Shown in pieces: positions 2,736-43,690 of a stretch of 64,000 bases of DNA. The notes beneath the pieces were generated by a model. That model searched no databases. It saw nothing but the letters and a program-made list of their open reading frames with translations, and was not told where the DNA came from. The position numbers and the translations under genes were made by a program. Positions within the stretch are counted from its first letter, which is position 1. Each line of letters opens with the position of its first letter. Source of the stretch: Thermoanaerobaculia bacterium (GTDB taxonomy: Bacteria; Acidobacteriota; Thermoanaerobaculia; Gp7-AA8); contig DASWBH010000389.1 in assembly GCA_036390755.1 (NCBI GenBank), positions 7,269-71,268 on the forward strand, read 5' to 3'.

Positions 2736-3909
2736 GGCCGACGACCACACGGTTGCGTCCGAGACGCTTGGCTTCGTAGAGACGTTCGTCGGCGGTATGG
2801 AACAGCACGTCGGCGAGCTCGCCGTCGTCGGGGAAGATCGCCGCACCGATGCTGATCGTGACCTGCGTTCCGTCGGCCGCTGCGGGAAGCCCGGCGACGT
2901 TCGCGCGAATGCGTTCGGCGACGCGCGCGAGCGCTTCCGCGTCGGCGAGCGGGACGATCACCGCGAACTCCTCGCCGCCGTAACGCGCCGGGAAGTCGAC
3001 CGCGCGCACCGTCTCGCGGATCACCTGCGCGACGCGCTGAAGCGCCGCGTTCCCGGCGAGGTGCCCGAAGCGGTCGTTGTACATCTTGAATCGATCGAGA
3101 TCGAGGATGAGGACGCCGAAGCGCTCGGCGTATCGCATGGCGCGGGCGATCTCGACATCGCTCCGTTCGCGAAATGCCCGGAAGTTCGGGAGTCCGGTGA
3201 GGTCGTCGGTCCGGGCGCGTGCGTTGAGCTCGTCGGCCATGTGGTTGAAGGCAACGCCAAGCTTCGCGACGTCGAGGTCACCGCCCACCGGCGCACGCGC
3301 GGTCACGTCTCCGGCGGCGATCCTGTCCGCGGCTTCAGCAAGCTTCTCGATCGGACGGACCACGCGGTGGTGCGTGAGCGTGGCCAGCGCAAAGCTGAGG
3401 ATGACGATGATCCAGGCGACGCCGATGCCGGTCAGCATCATGCCGTTCGCGTCGTGCTCGAGGGTCGGGAGTTGCCGGGCGATCACGCTCTTGTGCGCCT
3501 CGATGAGGCGCTGAGCCTCGACCACGATGCGAACCGACTCGGCGTTGAGCTCGCCCTGCGGCGCGCGCGTAAGCAGCAGCATGCGATACGCGCGGACCCG
3601 CACGCGCAGGGCCGAAGTGTCGATGGATTGGACGGCGCGGGAGTCGAGGAGTTGCTCGACGGCGTCATAGCGGTCGACGGCGCTGGCGTCAGTTCCCTGC
3701 AGCTTTCCGCGAAATGCGTTCTGAGCGCGAATGAGCTCGTCGAGACGCCCGATCGCTTCGGTCTCGACCGAGATCAGGCGCGACCACCGCTCCTGCGACT
3801 GCCTGGCCCGCCAGCTCAGACCGAACGTGATCAGAAGGAGAGCGCACGCGAATGCGGCCGTCAGCCACGTCACCCGCGTTCGCAACCGGATCCTGGACAC
3901 TTGAAACAA
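2701..3909 (-). CDS. Membrane-anchored diguanylate cyclase (GGDEF domain)
   Basis: N-terminal TM helices and a C-terminal GGDEF domain with RYGGEEF and DRFKMYNDRFGHLAGN. Confidence 0.85.
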   Translation of the reverse strand: MFQVSRIRLRTRVTWLTAAFACALLLITFGLSWRARQSQERWSRLISVETEAIGRLDELIRAQNAFRGKLQGTDASAVDRYDAVEQLLDSRAVQSIDTSALRVRVRAYRMLLLTRAPQGELNAESVRIVVEAQRLIEAHKSVIARQLPTLEHDANGMMLTGIGVAWIIVILSFALATLTHHRVVRPIEKLAEAADRIAAGDVTARAPVGGDLDVAKLGVAFNHMADELNARARTDDLTGLPNFRAFRERSDVEIARAMRYAERFGVLILDLDRFKMYNDRFGHLAGNAALQRVAQVIRETVRAVDFPARYGGEEFAVIVPLADAEALARVAERIRANVAGLPAAADGTQVTISIGAAIFPDDGELADVLFHTADERLYEAKRLGRNRVVVGPIVPRAAQSGG

Positions 3910-5177
3910 GGATAATCCGCCGCGTGATCGATTTGGAATCGATCTACCTGCAGGCGCTCGGGCAGTGCTCGCCCGAAAGACTGATCGCAGTGCGCAGAGC
4001 GCGGAGCGCAGGCTTCAAGACGGTCGTTGCCATCGGCAAGTGCGCCGGGCGGCTGGTGGACGGCCTCGGCGACTTCGAGCGAGCGTTTGTGGCGATTCCG
4101 AAGGGGTATCCGCCACCCGTCATTCTGAGCGCCGAAGAGCGCGAAGAATCTGGGCGGGGGCAAGCGAGCCACCACCCGGATTCTTCGCCGTCTTCGCGGC
4201 TCAGGATGACACGCGGCGGCCACCCCGACATCGACGACGACAGCTTTCGCGCAGGCGACCAGCTCCTTCGTTTCATCGATGAAAGCGACGATGTTCTCTT
4301 CCTCATCTCCGGTGGTGGCTCGGCATGCGTCGAGGTTCCGCTCGATCCTTTCACGCGCGACGAGATCGTCACGACGAACCGGCAGCTCGTCGCATCCGCG
4401 CTGCCGATCGGCGACATCAACATCGTGCGGAAGCATCTCTCCGCCATCAAAGGAGGCCGCCTCGCCGCGCGCGTACGCGGACGCTCGCTGACGCTCGTCT
4501 ACTCCGATGTGTCGACCGGCGCGATCGGCGACGTCGCGTCCGGCCCGACCGTCGCCGACTCATCCACCAACGAGCACGCCGCGCAGCTCCTCGAACGGAT
4601 CGGCGGTTCCGCGCGCGTCGTCGAAAAACTTCGCGATCCGAAGTTGCCTGAGACGATCCGCGACGTCGCGAGCTCGCGTGCGGAGATCATCGCGGACAAC
4701 ATGACGCTGACCGCCACCGCGGCGCGTCTCGTCCGCGGCGCCGGATTCGAGCCGGTCCTCTGGCCGGATCAGATCGAGACACCGGTCGACGAGGCCGCGC
4801 AGTTTCTTGCGGATCGCTGCAGGTCGCTTCGGCGACGCGAAGTGCTCGTCGCCGGGGGCGAGCCGACCGTCGCGCGGCGCGGCAGCGGACGGGGCGGCCG
4901 CTGTTGTGAGCTCGCCGTCCGTTTCGCGCTGGGCAGTGACAATCCTGCACTTTTCGGCAGCTCCGACGGCCTCGACGGAAGCAGCGGCATCGCCGGCGTC
5001 GTCGTTCATGGCGGGGCGGGGCGGATCGCCGGCACACTTCGCAAACTTCTCGACACCTCTGATTCACTCGAGGCCGCGCACTTGATCGGGCGAGCCGTTA
5101 TCATTCCCCCGACGGGGAACAATCTCCGCGATCTCTTTCTCGTAGCGGCAGATAACGGCGTAATGGCTCAACCTTAG
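3852..5177 (+). CDS. Glycerate 2-kinase (MOFRL family) carrying an in-frame palindromic-repeat insertion
   Basis: Motifs VVAIGKCAGR, GGHP, VLFLISGGGSACVEVP and the MOFRL C-terminus are present. A loop insertion VILSAEEREESGRGQASHHPDSSPSSRLRMT is encoded by the repeat at 4119-4210. The start is uncertain: the first 58 nt overlap the GGDEF gene, and an alternative GTG lies near 3925. Confidence 0.75.
   Translation: MRPSATSPAFATGSWTLETRIIRRVIDLESIYLQALGQCSPERLIAVRRARSAGFKTVVAIGKCAGRLVDGLGDFERAFVAIPKGYPPPVILSAEEREESGRGQASHHPDSSPSSRLRMTRGGHPDIDDDSFRAGDQLLRFIDESDDVLFLISGGGSACVEVPLDPFTRDEIVTTNRQLVASALPIGDINIVRKHLSAIKGGRLAARVRGRSLTLVYSDVSTGAIGDVASGPTVADSSTNEHAAQLLERIGGSARVVEKLRDPKLPETIRDVASSRAEIIADNMTLTATAARLVRGAGFEPVLWPDQIETPVDEAAQFLADRCRSLRRREVLVAGGEPTVARRGSGRGGRCCELAVRFALGSDNPALFGSSDGLDGSSGIAGVVVHGGAGRIAGTLRKLLDTSDSLEAAHLIGRAVIIPPTGNNLRDLFLVAADNGVMAQP
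4119..4210. repeat. Imperfect palindromic repeat of about 92 bp, family 1 copy 1, in-frame inside the glycerate kinase CDS
   Basis: gtcattctgagcgccgaagagcgcgaagaatctggg ... cccggattcttcgccgtcttcgcggctcaggatgac. The two arms are reverse complements of each other. It is about 90 percent identical to the copy at 30223-30310. Confidence 0.8.
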
Positions 5178-29159: not shown

Positions 29160-29734
29160 CGCGCTCCCGAGTAACGGCTGCCGGGCGAATCGATTCCGAC
29201 GCCCGACGCGCAGAGCGGGCAATTCTGTTCCGCGTGCGTCTCGAGATCGAGCGAGAGGAGCGATTCGTAGGGAGCATCGAACGGCTTCGATTTTCCGCTG
29301 CGATTGAGAATCGACGCGAAGCCGACGACAACGCCGCCGTGCTCCGCGACCACGCGCGCCGCTTCGCGCGTCGACCTGCCGGTCGTCACCACGTCCTCGA
29401 CGATGACCACGCGCTCGCCCGGTTTGATTCTGAAGCCGCGGCGCAGCGTCATCTCGCCCTCTTTCCGTTCCGTGAACATCATCGGCACGCCGAGCGCCTC
29501 CGCCACGGTGTAGCCGATGATGAGGCCTCCCATCGCCGGCGCGACGATCTTCTGCGCGCGCATGGGTCGTACTTTCGCGGCCAGTGCCTCGCCGAGCGCC
29601 TTTGCGTTCCGCGGGTCCTGCAGGAGCAGCGCGCACTGCACGTAGCTCGGACTGTGCAATCCCGATGAGAGGCGGAAATGACCCTGAAGAAGCGCGCCCG
29701 TTTCGTGAAGAAGTGCGAGCACGTCGAGAGGCAT
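29156..29734 (-). CDS. pyrE: Orotate phosphoribosyltransferase
   Basis: ..LLQGHFRLSSGLHSPSYVQC.. and the PRPP motif VVIVEDVVTTGRS. Confidence 0.85.
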   Translation of the reverse strand: MPLDVLALLHETGALLQGHFRLSSGLHSPSYVQCALLLQDPRNAKALGEALAAKVRPMRAQKIVAPAMGGLIIGYTVAEALGVPMMFTERKEGEMTLRRGFRIKPGERVVIVEDVVTTGRSTREAARVVAEHGGVVVGFASILNRSGKSKPFDAPYESLLSLDLETHAEQNCPLCASGVGIDSPGSRYSGAR

Positions 29735-29774
29735 GGGCCGCGAGAATAGAATGGCGTCCGGAGAGAAGCAACCG

Positions 29775-30221
29775 ATGCCGAAGTTGACGGAACAGATCCG
29801 CGCCGACCTCACTGAGTCGATGAAAGCGCGGACGGCCGTGCGCACCTCGACGCTGCGCATGTTGCAGTCGGCGATGAAGTACCAGCAGATCGAGGCCGGT
29901 CACGAGCTGTCGGATGAAGAGGTGCTCGCCGTCATCCGCAAAGCGGTGAAGCAGCGCCTCGACTCGATCGAGCAATACACGAAAGGCAACCGTCCCGAGC
30001 TCGCGGCGAAAGAGCAATCGGAGCTCGATCTGTTGAAGACGTATCTGCCGGCCGAGTTGACCGACGCGGAGCTCGAGTCGGGACTGCGCGACATCATCTC
30101 CTCGACCGGCGCGCAATCGAAAAAGGACCTTGGCAAAGTGATGAAGGAAGCGACGGCAAAGTACAAAGGGCGCGCGGACGGGAAGAAGATTCAGGAGATT
30201 GTGAGCAGACTGCTGACATAG
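29775..30221 (+). CDS. GatB/YqeY domain protein
   Basis: MPKLTEQIRADLTESMKARTAVRTSTLRMLQSAMKY.. A GGAGAGAAG SD lies 6 nt upstream of the start. Confidence 0.85.
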   Translation: MPKLTEQIRADLTESMKARTAVRTSTLRMLQSAMKYQQIEAGHELSDEEVLAVIRKAVKQRLDSIEQYTKGNRPELAAKEQSELDLLKTYLPAELTDAELESGLRDIISSTGAQSKKDLGKVMKEATAKYKGRADGKKIQEIVSRLLT

Positions 30222-30222
30222 T

Positions 30223-30310
30223 GTCATTCTGAGCGCCGTAGAGCGCGAAGAATCTGGGCGGTGGATTGCCACCTCCCAGATTCTTCGCCGTCTTCGCGGC
30301 TCAGAATGAC
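30223..30310. repeat. Imperfect palindromic repeat of about 88 bp, family 1 copy 2, filling the yqeY-moeB spacer and contributing the moeB ATG
   Basis: gtcattctgagcgccgtagagcgcgaagaatctggg...cccagattcttcgccgtcttcgcggctcagaATGac. It begins 1 nt after the yqeY TAG stop. Confidence 0.8.
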
Positions 30311-31424
30311 TCTCACCGACCACGAACGCACTCGCTACTCGCGCCACTTGCTCCTTCCCGAGATCGGCGAAGAAGGACAGGAGAAGCTCAAGCGCGCCTC
30401 AGCGCTCATCGTCGGCGTCGGAGGCCTCGGCAGTCCGGTGGCGATGTACCTGACCGCCGCCGGCGTCGGCAGGCTCGGTCTCGTCGACTTCGATACCGTC
30501 GATGAGACGAATCTGCAGCGCCAGATCCTGTTCGGCGAATCGGCCGTCGGCGAGCGCAAGCTCGACGCGGCCTGGAAGCGCCTGCGCGACATGAACCGCA
30601 ACCTGCGCATCGAGACGTTCAACGACCGACTCACATCGCGCAACGCCATGCCGCTGATGGAGCCATACGACATCATCCTCGACGGCACCGACAACTTCGC
30701 GACGCGGTATCTCGTGAACGACGCCTGCGTCATGCTGGGCAAGCCGAATGTTTACGCGTCGATTTATCGATTTGAAGGACAGGTATCGGTCTTCGATGCG
30801 ACGAAGGGACCCTGCTATCGCTGCCTGTATCCTGATCCGCCGCCGCCGAATCTCGTCCCTTCCTGCGCGGAGGGCGGAGTTCTCGGCGTGCTGCCGGGAG
30901 TCGTCGGCTGCTTACAGGCGACCGAAGCGATCAAGATGATCACCGGAGCGGGAGAACCGCTGATCGGAAGGATGCTGCTCTTCGACGCGCTGCGCATGAG
31001 CTTCCGCTCGCTGCGCGTGCCCAAGAATCCGAATTGCAAAGTGTGCGGACCGGATCCCGAGATCCGGCAACTGATCGACTATGAGGAGTACTGCGGACCC
31101 TTGAACAACATGGAAATTACGGCGCGGGAACTGGCCGATCGCATCGCGCGCGGGGAGCGGCTGTTCCTTCTCGACGTGCGCGAGCCGATCGAGTGGGACG
31201 CCGGCCATCTCGAACACGCGACGCATATCCCGCTGCAGCAGGTGCCGCGCAGTCTGGACTCGCTGCCGCACGACACCGAGATCGTCGTCTACTGCCGGAG
31301 CGGCGGACGGAGCGGCCGCGCCCAGCAGTACATGCTCAGCAACGGCTTCAAGAGCGTGAAGAATCTCGCCGGCGGACTTATCGCCTGGGCGCGCGAAGTC
31401 GATCCTTCGGTGAAGGTTCGCTAG
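30306..31424 (+). CDS. moeB: Molybdopterin/thiamine-biosynthesis adenylyltransferase with C-terminal rhodanese domain (MoeZ/MoeB-like)
   Basis: ..RYSRHLLLPEIGEEGQEKLKRASALIVGVGGLGSP.. ThiF/MoeB fold with CxxC pairs, and a C-terminal rhodanese (..VVYCRSGGRSGRA..). The ATG lies inside the repeat arm. A longer GTG-initiated ORF from 30261 also reads through the repeat. Confidence 0.85.
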   Translation: MTLTDHERTRYSRHLLLPEIGEEGQEKLKRASALIVGVGGLGSPVAMYLTAAGVGRLGLVDFDTVDETNLQRQILFGESAVGERKLDAAWKRLRDMNRNLRIETFNDRLTSRNAMPLMEPYDIILDGTDNFATRYLVNDACVMLGKPNVYASIYRFEGQVSVFDATKGPCYRCLYPDPPPPNLVPSCAEGGVLGVLPGVVGCLQATEAIKMITGAGEPLIGRMLLFDALRMSFRSLRVPKNPNCKVCGPDPEIRQLIDYEEYCGPLNNMEITARELADRIARGERLFLLDVREPIEWDAGHLEHATHIPLQQVPRSLDSLPHDTEIVVYCRSGGRSGRAQQYMLSNGFKSVKNLAGGLIAWAREVDPSVKVR

Positions 31425-35956: not shown

Positions 35957-38206
<2,250 letters not shown>

Positions 38207-42769: not shown

Positions 42770-43690
42770 CTATGAACGGCGGTCGCAGATAAAACGCGCG
42801 ATGTCCGCCAGATAGTTCACAGGGCCGGCGATCATATCAGCGTTCTCTACGGCCGTCCGGAGGAGGGCCGCGACCTCGGCCCGTGCCGCTTCCGCACCAA
42901 CGACGGCCGGATACGTCAGCTTCCCCTGCGCCGCGTCCTTCCCGGCAGTCTTGCCGAGCGTGGCGGAGGACTGCTCCCGATCGAGGAGATCGTCGACGAT
43001 CTGGAAGGCGAGACCGAGCGAGCTGCCGTAGTGGGCGAGGCGTACGAGCTGGTCATCGCTGCCCCCGCCGAGGATCCCGCCGAGCAGGACGGACGCGGTG
43101 ATGAGCTTGCCGGTCTTGTTGCGGTGGATGAACCGGACGCGCCGCAGTCCTCCCTCTCCCGCGTACGGGAGAGGGTGGCGCGAAGCGCCGAGTGAGGGCG
43201 TTTCCTCCAGATCCGCGACCTGCCCACCGATCATCCCGGTCGAGTCGACCGCCTGAGCGATGGTCGTGATCGCGCGCAGCTGCCGCTCCGCGGGGATGCC
43301 CGCAACCGGCCGCGCAAGCCACGAGAACGCCTCGGTCAGCAGCGCATCGCCCGTGAGGATGCCGATCGCCTCGCCGTAGACCACGTGCGTCGTCTTGCGC
43401 CCGCGGCGGAGATCGTCGTTGTCGAGCGCCGGCAGGTCGTCATGGACGAGCGAGTACGTGTGGATCAGCTCGAGCGCGGCGAACGGAACGAGCAGCGGCT
43501 GCACGGCGGCGCCAACCGACTCGGCCGCCGCAATCGCGAGGATCGGCCGGATCCTCTTGCCGCCGCCGAGGACGGCGTAACGCATCGCCTCGTGAATGAC
43601 GGCAGGCTCGGTGTCCGGCTCTGGCAGGTTCCCGGTCAGCGTCTGTTCGACCAGCGCGCGACGATCCTGGAGAAAGGATTCGAGTCGCAT
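42770..43690 (-). CDS. ispA: Farnesyl/geranyl diphosphate synthase, with an in-frame family-2 repeat insertion
   Basis: LIHTYSLVHDDLP and FQIVDDLLD. The repeat at 43145-43198 inserts ..TPSLGASRHPLPYAGEGG.. between the DLEE and IHRNKTG motifs. Confidence 0.9.
   Translation of the reverse strand: MRLESFLQDRRALVEQTLTGNLPEPDTEPAVIHEAMRYAVLGGGKRIRPILAIAAAESVGAAVQPLLVPFAALELIHTYSLVHDDLPALDNDDLRRGRKTTHVVYGEAIGILTGDALLTEAFSWLARPVAGIPAERQLRAITTIAQAVDSTGMIGGQVADLEETPSLGASRHPLPYAGEGGLRRVRFIHRNKTGKLITASVLLGGILGGGSDDQLVRLAHYGSSLGLAFQIVDDLLDREQSSATLGKTAGKDAAQGKLTYPAVVGAEAARAEVAALLRTAVENADMIAGPVNYLADIARFICDRRS
43145..43198. repeat. Short repeat with internal palindrome, family 2 copy B, in-frame inside ispA
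   Basis: cagtcctCCCTCTCCCGCGTACGGGAGAGGGtggcgcgaagcgccgagtgaggg. It is inverted relative to copy A, although both host genes are on the minus strand. Confidence 0.75.

Follow-up and report, generated by a model that had tools for sequence, protein, structure and literature searches.

What kind of repeat can lie inside the coding sequence of a conserved enzyme and leave its reading frame open? The question is raised by a 92-nucleotide (nt) quasi-palindrome at positions 4119-4210 of a 64,000-nt stretch of DNA (here called the window) from a metagenome-assembled genome (MAG) of a Thermoanaerobaculia bacterium, where it falls within a glycerate 2-kinase gene (gck). The original prediction, made from the letters of this DNA, held it to be a single long hairpin inserted in frame, adding about 30 residues to the kinase in the manner of the Rickettsia palindromic elements (RPEs). 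The analysis described here indicates that the element is probably a dimer of repetitive extragenic palindromic (REP) sequences bearing a YGTC (CGTC or TGTC) tag, comparable to REPINs (REP doublets forming hairpins) and bacterial interspersed mosaic elements (BIMEs): a non-autonomous, dispersed repeat that is tolerated in frame in gck. The features on which the argument rests are as follows.

3924-5177, plus strand: host gene, an intact open reading frame (ORF) for a DUF4147/MOFRL glycerate 2-kinase (HEX9163323.1)
4119-4210, no strand assigned: the proposed REP dimer, two inverted REP-like arms and a central palindrome, encoding V66-T96 of the 417-amino-acid product
4119-4150, plus strand: left arm, GTCATTCTGAGCGCCGAAGAGCGCGAAGAATC; C4118 before it completes a CGTC tag; hidden Markov model (HMM) of the arm, E 8.8e-9
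4151-4178, no strand assigned: central imperfect palindrome or spacer, TGGGCGGGGGC AAGCGA GCCACCACCCG, subfamily-specific and resembling that of copy 2
4179-4210, minus strand: right arm, reverse complement GTCATCCTGAGCCGCGAAGACGGCGAAGAATC; A4211 next to it completes a TGTC tag; arm HMM, E 5.2e-12
4119-4178, plus strand: the stretch that is extra relative to the closest orthologues, exactly 60 nt or 20 codons (V66-P85) in a codon-level comparison
30223-30310, no strand assigned: copy 2, same subfamily, intergenic; arms at 30223-30254 (plus) and 30279-30310 (minus)

A palindromic repeat within an intact kinase gene

The host gene is whole. Its open frame spans 3852-5177 (441 codons), with the annotated product beginning at 3924, and Pfam recognizes both DUF4147 (2.6e-42) and MOFRL (5.7e-16) in the ORF; the protein also matches the Thermotoga glycerate kinase 2b8n. 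The peptide encoded by the element, VILSAEEREESGRGQASHHPDSSPSSRLRMT, lies between the AIGKCAGR and GGHP blocks, exactly where the original prediction had placed it.

Sequence comparison, repeat search, and RNA and DNA folds all bear out the quasi-palindrome and its ability to fold as a hairpin. The first 36 nt of the element occur at two places in the window, at 4119 with no mismatch and at 30223 with one, and a match to these 36 nt appears in none of 100 dinucleotide-preserving shuffles of the window. The repeat search likewise pairs the two copies (match D15, 42 nt at 95%; match D5, 56 nt at 86%), so the second copy that had been proposed is real, and within it detects an inverted repeat (I3) with 45-nt arms that are 84% complementary. 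The gck arms are identical to the intergenic arms of copy 2 at 31/32 and 31/32 DNA positions, and the central stem, TCTGGGCGG, matches that of copy 2. When folded as RNA, both copies form long hairpins on either strand (-62.8 to -66.9 kcal/mol, z -9.2 to -10.5), with none of 200 shuffles folding as well; the DNA fold of the first copy reaches -34.8 kcal/mol (z -7.5).

The reading frame needs a closer look, because 92 is not a multiple of three and the 92-nt unit therefore cannot itself be an in-frame insert. The gck copy is free of stops in two of the three frames on each strand. This follows from where its sole stop triplets stand: TGA is found in GTCATTCTGA and again in AATGAC/GGATGAC, and at a length that is 2 modulo 3 these share a frame. 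Across the family, the number of open frames per element ranges from zero to four.

Each arm is a conserved hairpin

The long hairpin predicted for each copy can be compared with a hairpin confined to each arm. We made this comparison in a family of related loci, collected by scanning species-representative genomes with the pattern CTGAGCNNCGNAGANNGCGAAGAATC. The scan returned at least 70 loci, well beyond the two copies first noticed. Most are in MAGs of Thermoanaerobaculia and other Acidobacteriota, with at least 24 contigs coming from one MAG; a few belong to Chthoniobacterales, Verrucomicrobiota or Omnitrophica, and no family match was found in viral contigs.

Covariation was measured in 71 distinct arms from the related loci, using the structure ...(((((..((((......))))..))))). 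for the single arm. The four positions that the scan pattern left free are complementary within the arm, as GC..GC, CG..CG, CC..GG or TC..GA, and so are positions that the scan did not constrain (ACAG..CTGT, CTCG..CGAG, and T or C at position 6 with A or G at position 29). Over nine pairs, intra-arm pairing holds in 96.2% of cells versus 84.2% in shuffles; changes on both sides of a pair occur in six of the nine pairs, in 69 cells where 18.8 are expected; and the covariation score is 0.341 versus 0.114. None of 500 shuffles reaches any of these measures, and sliding the partner by one to three columns drops pairing to 29-46%. Of the outermost pairs, 4-31 is A-U in 66 of 71 arms, and 5-30 is U-A in all 71.

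Pairing between the two arms behaves differently. Among 53 non-redundant dimers of two long arms (106 arms), the variable positions 6, 12, 14, 21 and 29 form Watson-Crick pairs between arms in only 14-34 dimers (18/53 at position 6 and 28/53 at position 14, for example), while the intra-arm pairs hold in 98-104 of the 106 arms. A 'T-type' arm (ATTCT..AGAAT) may pair with a 'C-type' arm (ATCCT..AGGAT), and position 6 is mismatched or wobble-paired between arms in 35 of 53 dimers. The conserved unit is the hairpin of each arm, arranged as a REP dimer, and not the long inter-arm hairpin; on this point the original prediction does not stand.

The window copies fit this structure. On its own, the left arm of gck folds as 5 bp, a tandem G.A and 4 bp closed by the hexaloop CGAAGA, and it carries a rare GC..GC variant of the inner stem that is also found in copy 2. 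A DNA fold of 4116-4154 reproduces this hairpin (-7.6 kcal/mol), and ViennaRNA with DNA parameters gives the arm hairpin for all but one of the four window arms, at -6.1 to -7.6 kcal/mol. The exception is the right arm of the gck copy, whose own outer stem contains a single C.A mismatch; in the DNA fold this arm retains only the inner stem.

A dispersed family of inverted dimers

Taking the related loci and the window together, we identified 237 arms in 74 sequences, with the consensus YGTC-ATYCT-GA-GCNN-CGNAGA-N'N'GC-GA-AGRAT-C; the 32-nt form accounts for 186 of them, and a short form of 25 nt, GTCATCCTGAGCGAAGCGAAGGATC, for 25. Between them the arms form 101 inverted dimers, 63-100 nt in length. 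Immediately 5′ of GTCAT there is a T in 175 of 236 arms, a C in 57 and another base in 4, so that a pyrimidine stands there in 232/236; the window tags are CGTC (4118-4121) and TGTC (the reverse complement of 4208-4211, and 30222-30225). The three bases after the arm are most often TCC (93), CGT (45) or CCC (23), with others making up the remainder.

Many dimers are heterodimers that join a 32-nt with a 25-nt arm (loci L004-L073, e.g. L005, L011, L013, L018 and L020). The centre of the short arm is GCGAAGC, a sequence also present in a second repeat family in the window, described below; GCGAAGC is said, from work by Hirao and colleagues, to be an unusually stable DNA mini-hairpin. In the Acidobacteriota MAG CP_BM_RX_49, dimers follow one another head to tail in arrays; these comprise 4-9 units at periods of roughly 97-202 nt and are located as follows.

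L039, 4188-4972: dimer array
L017, 1624-2468: dimer array
L060, 3446-4525: dimer array
L032, 2989-3800: dimer array
L062, 6026-6537: dimer array

Within these arrays the linkers are themselves repeated and long-long dimers alternate with long-short ones, a BIME-like organization. We considered whether such regularly spaced matches might be CRISPR-like and rejected this, as the repeating units, at periods of 135-202 nt, are tandem whole dimers with repeated linkers and there are no unique spacers.

A concatenated 63-residue element-peptide query against the protein database gave 20 word-sharing candidates, none with E<=1, and a literature search for the arm sequence strings found no relevant paper, nor did the strings occur in the supplements of PMC3733652, a survey of REPs to which we return below.

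Position of the copies relative to genes

In 41 of 61 isolated elements, an ORF of 150 codons or more terminates 2-30 nt from the element, compared to about 5 expected at random positions, and 9 isolated elements have such an ORF end on both sides; the copies occur in both orientations. Because most copies stand 2-30 nt behind ORFs, copy 2 is typical of the family and the gck copy is the exception. The genes beside copy 2 are these.

29733-30221, plus strand: YqeY-family gene, with its TAG 2 nt before copy 2
30306-31424, plus strand: ThiF/MoeB plus rhodanese gene, with its likely start codon in the right arm of copy 2

Copy 2 ends in ...CAGAATGAC, and the ATG at 30306, within its last 5 nt, begins in frame the ThiF/MoeB-rhodanese product MTLTDHERTRYSRHLLLPEIG. 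Here (30306-30310), and also in L011 at about 3675-3751, for a membrane protein (MTLGAAVVLIV...), the likely ATG of the downstream gene is provided by, or falls together with, the ATGAC at the element's end. Such a start codon would lie in the stem of a very stable hairpin, and upstream of 30306 there is no evident Shine-Dalgarno-like sequence.

Copies that follow a stop codon would most likely act, if they act at all, as 3′-end hairpins, a role established for REPs. In a rival explanation, the element is primarily a functional RNA, a 3′-end stabiliser or attenuator, and the gck copy is kept for an mRNA structure that regulates translation or decay of the kinase message. The great stability of the hairpins, the position of most copies just behind ORF ends, the proposal that REPs serve as 3′-end stabiliser or attenuator hairpins (PMC3733652), and the burial of a downstream start codon by copy 2 are all in keeping with it. 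Several observations speak against it. Mispairs in the arm stems show no wobble asymmetry (12 G.T versus 14 A.C), and because the two are equally frequent there is no sign that one transcribed strand has been selected. Copies stand in both orientations. No T-run follows either window copy (4210 is followed by acgcggcggcca and 30310 by tctcaccgacca), so neither has the form of an intrinsic terminator. None of 4227 Rfam models matches the window at the gathering threshold, and around the element, matches at E up to 10 are at chance level (E 2-8). Furthermore, gck orthologues work without the left arm. We therefore regard an RNA function as an unlikely explanation of the gck copy; for the intergenic copies, it is compatible with their being REP dimers.

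Intragenic copies are scarce, amounting to about 2-3 of the 101 sampled. One further element is clearly inside a real gene: at L048 598-693 (MAG SMAG_U9006), it stands in frame within a glycosyltransferase of ArnT/GT39-like type and splits the PMT_2 domain there, and when it is removed in silico, a single PMT_2 match covers profile positions 1-159 of 160 and the score rises from 45.5 to 54.3 bits. L033 258-353, in a multi-pass membrane protein of CP_BM_RX_49, may be another in-frame example; neither its ORF nor that of L011 has a Pfam match. Element-spanning ORFs in L004, L015, L049, L063, L013 and L022 resemble off-frame GC-rich artefacts and are excluded from this count.

History of the glycerate kinase site

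If the 92-nt unit is not itself an in-frame insert, the orthologues should reveal what was gained. Among the 120 best-scoring homologues, the window protein included, most have 21 residues from IPxGY to GGHPD; the window protein alone has 45, a net gain of 22-24 codons over typical homologues. The nearest relatives, at 61-64% protein identity (BLASTP), keep the synteny GGDEF - kinase - TamB/Omp85 and have stretches of 23-28 residues, e.g. PDPSPSPRLRMT, PGPSPSTRLRMT and PDSEPSSRLGMT; these correspond to the right-arm peptide of the element, where the window protein has PDSSPSSRLRMT.

At the DNA level, the same codons of loci L001 and L002 read CCCGGATCCCTCGCCGTCTCCGCGGCTCAGGATGAC and similar, and the arm HMM finds a right arm there at E 1e-9 and 1.3e-10, the sole arm in each locus. 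The window's right arm, which encodes DSSPSSRLRMT, is orthologous to this lone decayed arm, and the window gene corresponds to the orthologue state with precisely 60 nt added (4119-4178, V66-P85). This is thus no clean 92-bp insertion: the net change is in frame, and against the nearest orthologues it measures 60 nt. Of the roughly 30 added residues, the 20 N-terminal ones are absent from all 119 other homologues examined, while the right arm is already present in the closest orthologues and RLRMT(R) stands at the place of a native strand.

That strand points to an older event. A sister clade with YPEPRWRGNVIVAHGGHP, as well as more distant homologues, has no arm trace and has a native strand, xxAxVxx, before GGHP; this strand is missing from the window gene and from the remnant-bearing clade, which have RLRMT(x) in its place. 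Remnant right-arm peptides occur throughout the clade that is sister to the native-strand clade, and since they are spread over the whole of it, a REP arm would have stood at this site in the ancestor of that clade and is now part of the protein. In the course of events that we propose, this ancestor would have acquired a REP arm whose last codons, RLRMT, now appear to replace the native beta-strand, and a full dimer would later have re-formed at, or re-invaded, the old REP-derived site.

The present dimer is most likely a younger re-formation or re-invasion of this kind, judging from the sequences of the arms. We favour this because the arms are pristine and match the family consensus, because the window copy shares its rare GC..GC left arm and its central stem with copy 2, and because the remnants in relatives have diverged from one another. 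The alternative is that a full dimer is ancestral, was retained in the window lineage alone, and lost its left arm and spacer in the relatives. Right-arm remnants across the clade would be expected from such a history, and the REPIN literature (PMC3337134) takes single REPs as decayed REPINs. Five or more deep lineages, however, have the P|D boundary in common, so that this history would demand either that an identical 60-nt deletion happened several times or that it happened once, early, with the window lineage as outgroup. It also leaves the pristine state of the window arms, which match both the consensus and the GC..GC subfamily of copy 2, at odds with a protein that is otherwise only 61-64% identical to its relatives. 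Slippage or deletion between CCACCC direct repeats was considered as a route to the orthologue state and rejected: these repeats stand 59 nt apart, whereas the genes differ by 60 nt, and simple slippage from one to the other would put the sequence out of frame. We regard it as improbable that an ancestral dimer was retained, and re-formation or re-invasion is the history we carry forward.

How the enzyme accommodates the insert was addressed in silico. When the 20 residues encoded by 4119-4178 are taken out, the DUF4147 score goes up slightly, from 145.5 bits to 149.0 bits. An AlphaFold2 model of the window kinase, built from a 23-sequence alignment, has a mean predicted local distance difference test score (pLDDT) of 86, a predicted template modelling score (pTM) of 0.85, and a template modelling score (TM) of 0.76 to 2b8n. 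In this model, A70-S76 form a short helix and residues 71-90 are a low-confidence loop (pLDDT 55-58); L93-G98 (LRMTRG) are modelled as a beta-strand within a block of pLDDT about 88, such that a strand built from the last element-encoded residues, RLRMTR, precedes GGHP. Outside the insert, the model has an intact glycerate-kinase fold. Based on sequence and this model, the enzyme is most likely still functional, with the extra ~26 residues forming a passenger loop. One dimer thus appears to occupy the variable surface loop before GGHP, and the gck copy probably owes its survival to a net change that keeps the frame, to the 92-nt copy being open in two of three frames per strand, and to a loop that tolerates extra residues.

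A second repeat family in the window and at the kinase loop of another lineage

The window contains a second, unrelated repeat family, with the core TCCCTCTCCCGCGYRCGGGAGAGGGTGGCGCGAAGCGCCGRGTGAGGGCG, at 36204-36260 and 43145-43201 in inverted orientation and with 95% identity. One copy lies in a UvrD helicase ORF (35957-38206, minus strand), where it is in frame as LSPPSPARGRGWREAPGEGV in the linker between UvrD_C and a Tudor domain; the other lies in a polyprenyl synthetase ORF (42770-43690, minus strand), in frame as SLGASRHPLPYAGEGGL, which has about 10 residues more there than PDB 5xn5. With the gck insert, three conserved enzymes in 64 kb therefore have repeat-derived segments.

In the gck orthologue P0013 of another Thermoanaerobaculia MAG (L003 10190-10240), the same loop has a segment of about 47 nt that differs little from the second repeat family of the window, has a further palindrome of GGGGAGAAGG type behind it, and encodes SGRGWREAPGEGLPLIRPAATFSRGEKG. 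The glycerate kinase loop has been struck by two repeat families in different lineages. In addition, a kinase subclade (P0027, P0028, P0032, P0035, P0038 and P0041) has a 36-residue loop, PHLRMRSTAGSHPRDRRRHARIARGGHP, that begins with LRM and, going by its sequence, may be a further old repeat-derived insertion.

Relationship to known repeats

The closest described class is that of the CGTC-tagged REPs. Di Nocera, De Gregorio and Rocco (2013, PMC3733652) split REPs into GTAG- and CGTC-tagged superfamilies; in the latter, the tag is often TGTC (variants TGTC and CCTC), the stem opens with complementary A-T residues and has 8-9 bp with a 4-5 nt loop, and a 3-nt tail is near CCA. CGTC REPs are mostly inverted dimers with structured spacers, including heterodimers, lie close behind ORFs, and have no associated transposase; RPE-4 and RPE-6 of Rickettsia and dRS3 of Neisseria are counted among them. 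The same survey reports that intragenic dimers encode 20-30 amino acids in R. conorii, with a GTAG equivalent in Opitutus terrae, and documents intragenic REPs in Opitutus terrae, Thauera and others. The family described here shares with CGTC REPs the unpaired CGTC/TGTC tag, a stem that starts with A-T and then T-A, the inverted dimers near the 3′ ends of ORFs, some of them intragenic and encoding 20-30 amino acids, and the lack of an identified transposase. Acidobacteriota are outside the five phyla that PMC3733652 lists, and the comparison is one of description rather than of consensus sequence.

Other systems resemble the element in part. REPINs and BIMEs, the doublets of E. coli and Pseudomonas mobilised by the REP-associated tyrosine transposase RAYT (Bertels and Rainey 2011), have the same inverted two-hairpin architecture with a short spacer, able to fold into a larger hairpin, many copies, no target-site duplication, and clusters or arrays; their classical tag, however, is GTAG, with a cognate single-copy RAYT (a Y1 HUH transposase) flanked by REPs, whereas the tag here is YGTC. 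RPEs (RPE-1 and others; Ogata et al. 2000, via PMC10969869) are also palindromic, in frame in conserved housekeeping genes, about 30 residues long and compatible with the fold of the host protein. The RPE-like behaviour first proposed is therefore apt, in that a multi-copy palindrome stands in frame in a conserved enzyme and appears as a low-confidence excursion from an intact fold in the model. The organism (a Thermoanaerobaculia MAG) and the sequence family differ, the copies are seldom intragenic, and part of the peptide replaces a native strand rather than purely adding to the protein. The GTAG REP dimers of Opitutus terrae are likewise intragenic in a free-living soil bacterium, including in uvrA and a UvrD/REP helicase, but belong to another tag class and phylum (PMC3733652). 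[quoted passage not shown]

A MITE is indeed another candidate identity, in which the element would be a deletion derivative of an insertion sequence (IS), moved by a DDE transposase acting on the terminal inverted repeats GTCATTCTGAGC...GCTCAGAATGAC. Terminal inverted repeats, a length of 63-100 nt, high copy number and the known in-frame fusions all fit. On the other hand, direct repeats of 3 nt or more (3-9 nt searched) flank none of the 101 elements, so the target-site duplication of a MITE is absent; each arm is itself a covarying hairpin; arms also combine with the 25-nt arm type and in head-to-tail arrays; and copies cluster just behind stop codons. No transposase was seen beside copies in the sampled loci, where no systematic search was made. 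A classical MITE is thus very unlikely. Last, we hold it extremely improbable that the segment is a native protein insertion maintained by selection, or that the palindrome arose as an artefact in the assembly of a repeat-rich MAG. In favour are the intact ORF, the single protein annotated by NCBI and the short-read origin of the MAG. Against this, the arms are 31/32 and 31/32 identical in DNA to a copy that is intergenic and non-coding, model confidence in the insert is low, the sequences on either side belong to one gene in one frame, synteny is conserved, and independent assemblies carry a homologous arm at the same codons.

The YGTC-tagged REP dimer is the probable identity of the element; several observations weigh against it. 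In place of an 8-9 bp stem and a 4-5 nt loop, the arms have 5 bp, a tandem G.A and 4 bp with a 6-nt loop, or the 25-nt short form, and the tail is most commonly TCC, CGT or CCC instead of CCA. Single-arm hairpins are modestly stable as DNA (-4 to -7.6 kcal/mol, z 0.2 to -2). When about 600 kb of loci and the window were searched by tblastn with an E. coli RayT sequence, there was no match at E<1, which is a weak test. The arm profile search finds exactly four arms, i.e. two elements, in the 64-kb window, and this is the scope of the copy count for the source genome. In the covariation sample, the scan pattern fixed much of one arm per locus and the copies are related by descent, for which one of the controls accounts in part only. 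Finally, the order of events at the gck site, whether the dimer was retained or re-formed, rests on a neighbour-joining tree of the kinase clade that is shallow.

With these points considered, we propose that YGTC arms, each forming a hairpin of about 32 nt and facing one another across a short palindromic spacer, would constitute an element abundant in Thermoanaerobaculia and other Acidobacteriota, and that it most likely spreads through single-stranded hairpin intermediates with a putative enzyme supplied in trans. It is a new family, or a new member, of a known class and not a new kind of system.

Implications

On its own the finding is modest and reveals no new kind of system. Its interest is in what it adds to the ways in which bacterial proteins change. 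Only a few routes are known by which bacteria gain new peptide segments in conserved enzymes, and REP-type repeats within genes are one of them; most well-documented cases come from Rickettsia and a handful of other genomes, and this locus brings in the Acidobacteriota as well. A clear evolutionary series can also be read at this one site: a native loop, a decayed single arm that provides a strand, a fresh dimer, and, in one lineage, a different repeat family. The family has unusually clear per-arm hairpin covariation, and knowing it has a practical use in annotation, where such inserts could otherwise be misread as novel domains, frameshifts or spurious small ORFs.

A broader idea is that REP-type repeats of Thermoanaerobaculia systematically remodel conserved proteins as RPEs do in Rickettsia. 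The arm-supplied strand and the loop re-invasion in glycerate kinase, together with the UvrD and polyprenyl synthase inserts, make this a possibility that we hold tentatively and with some doubt. If it were true genome-wide, it would represent a free-living soil or sediment case of repeat-driven protein evolution, and would provide a tractable YGTC-tagged REP class.

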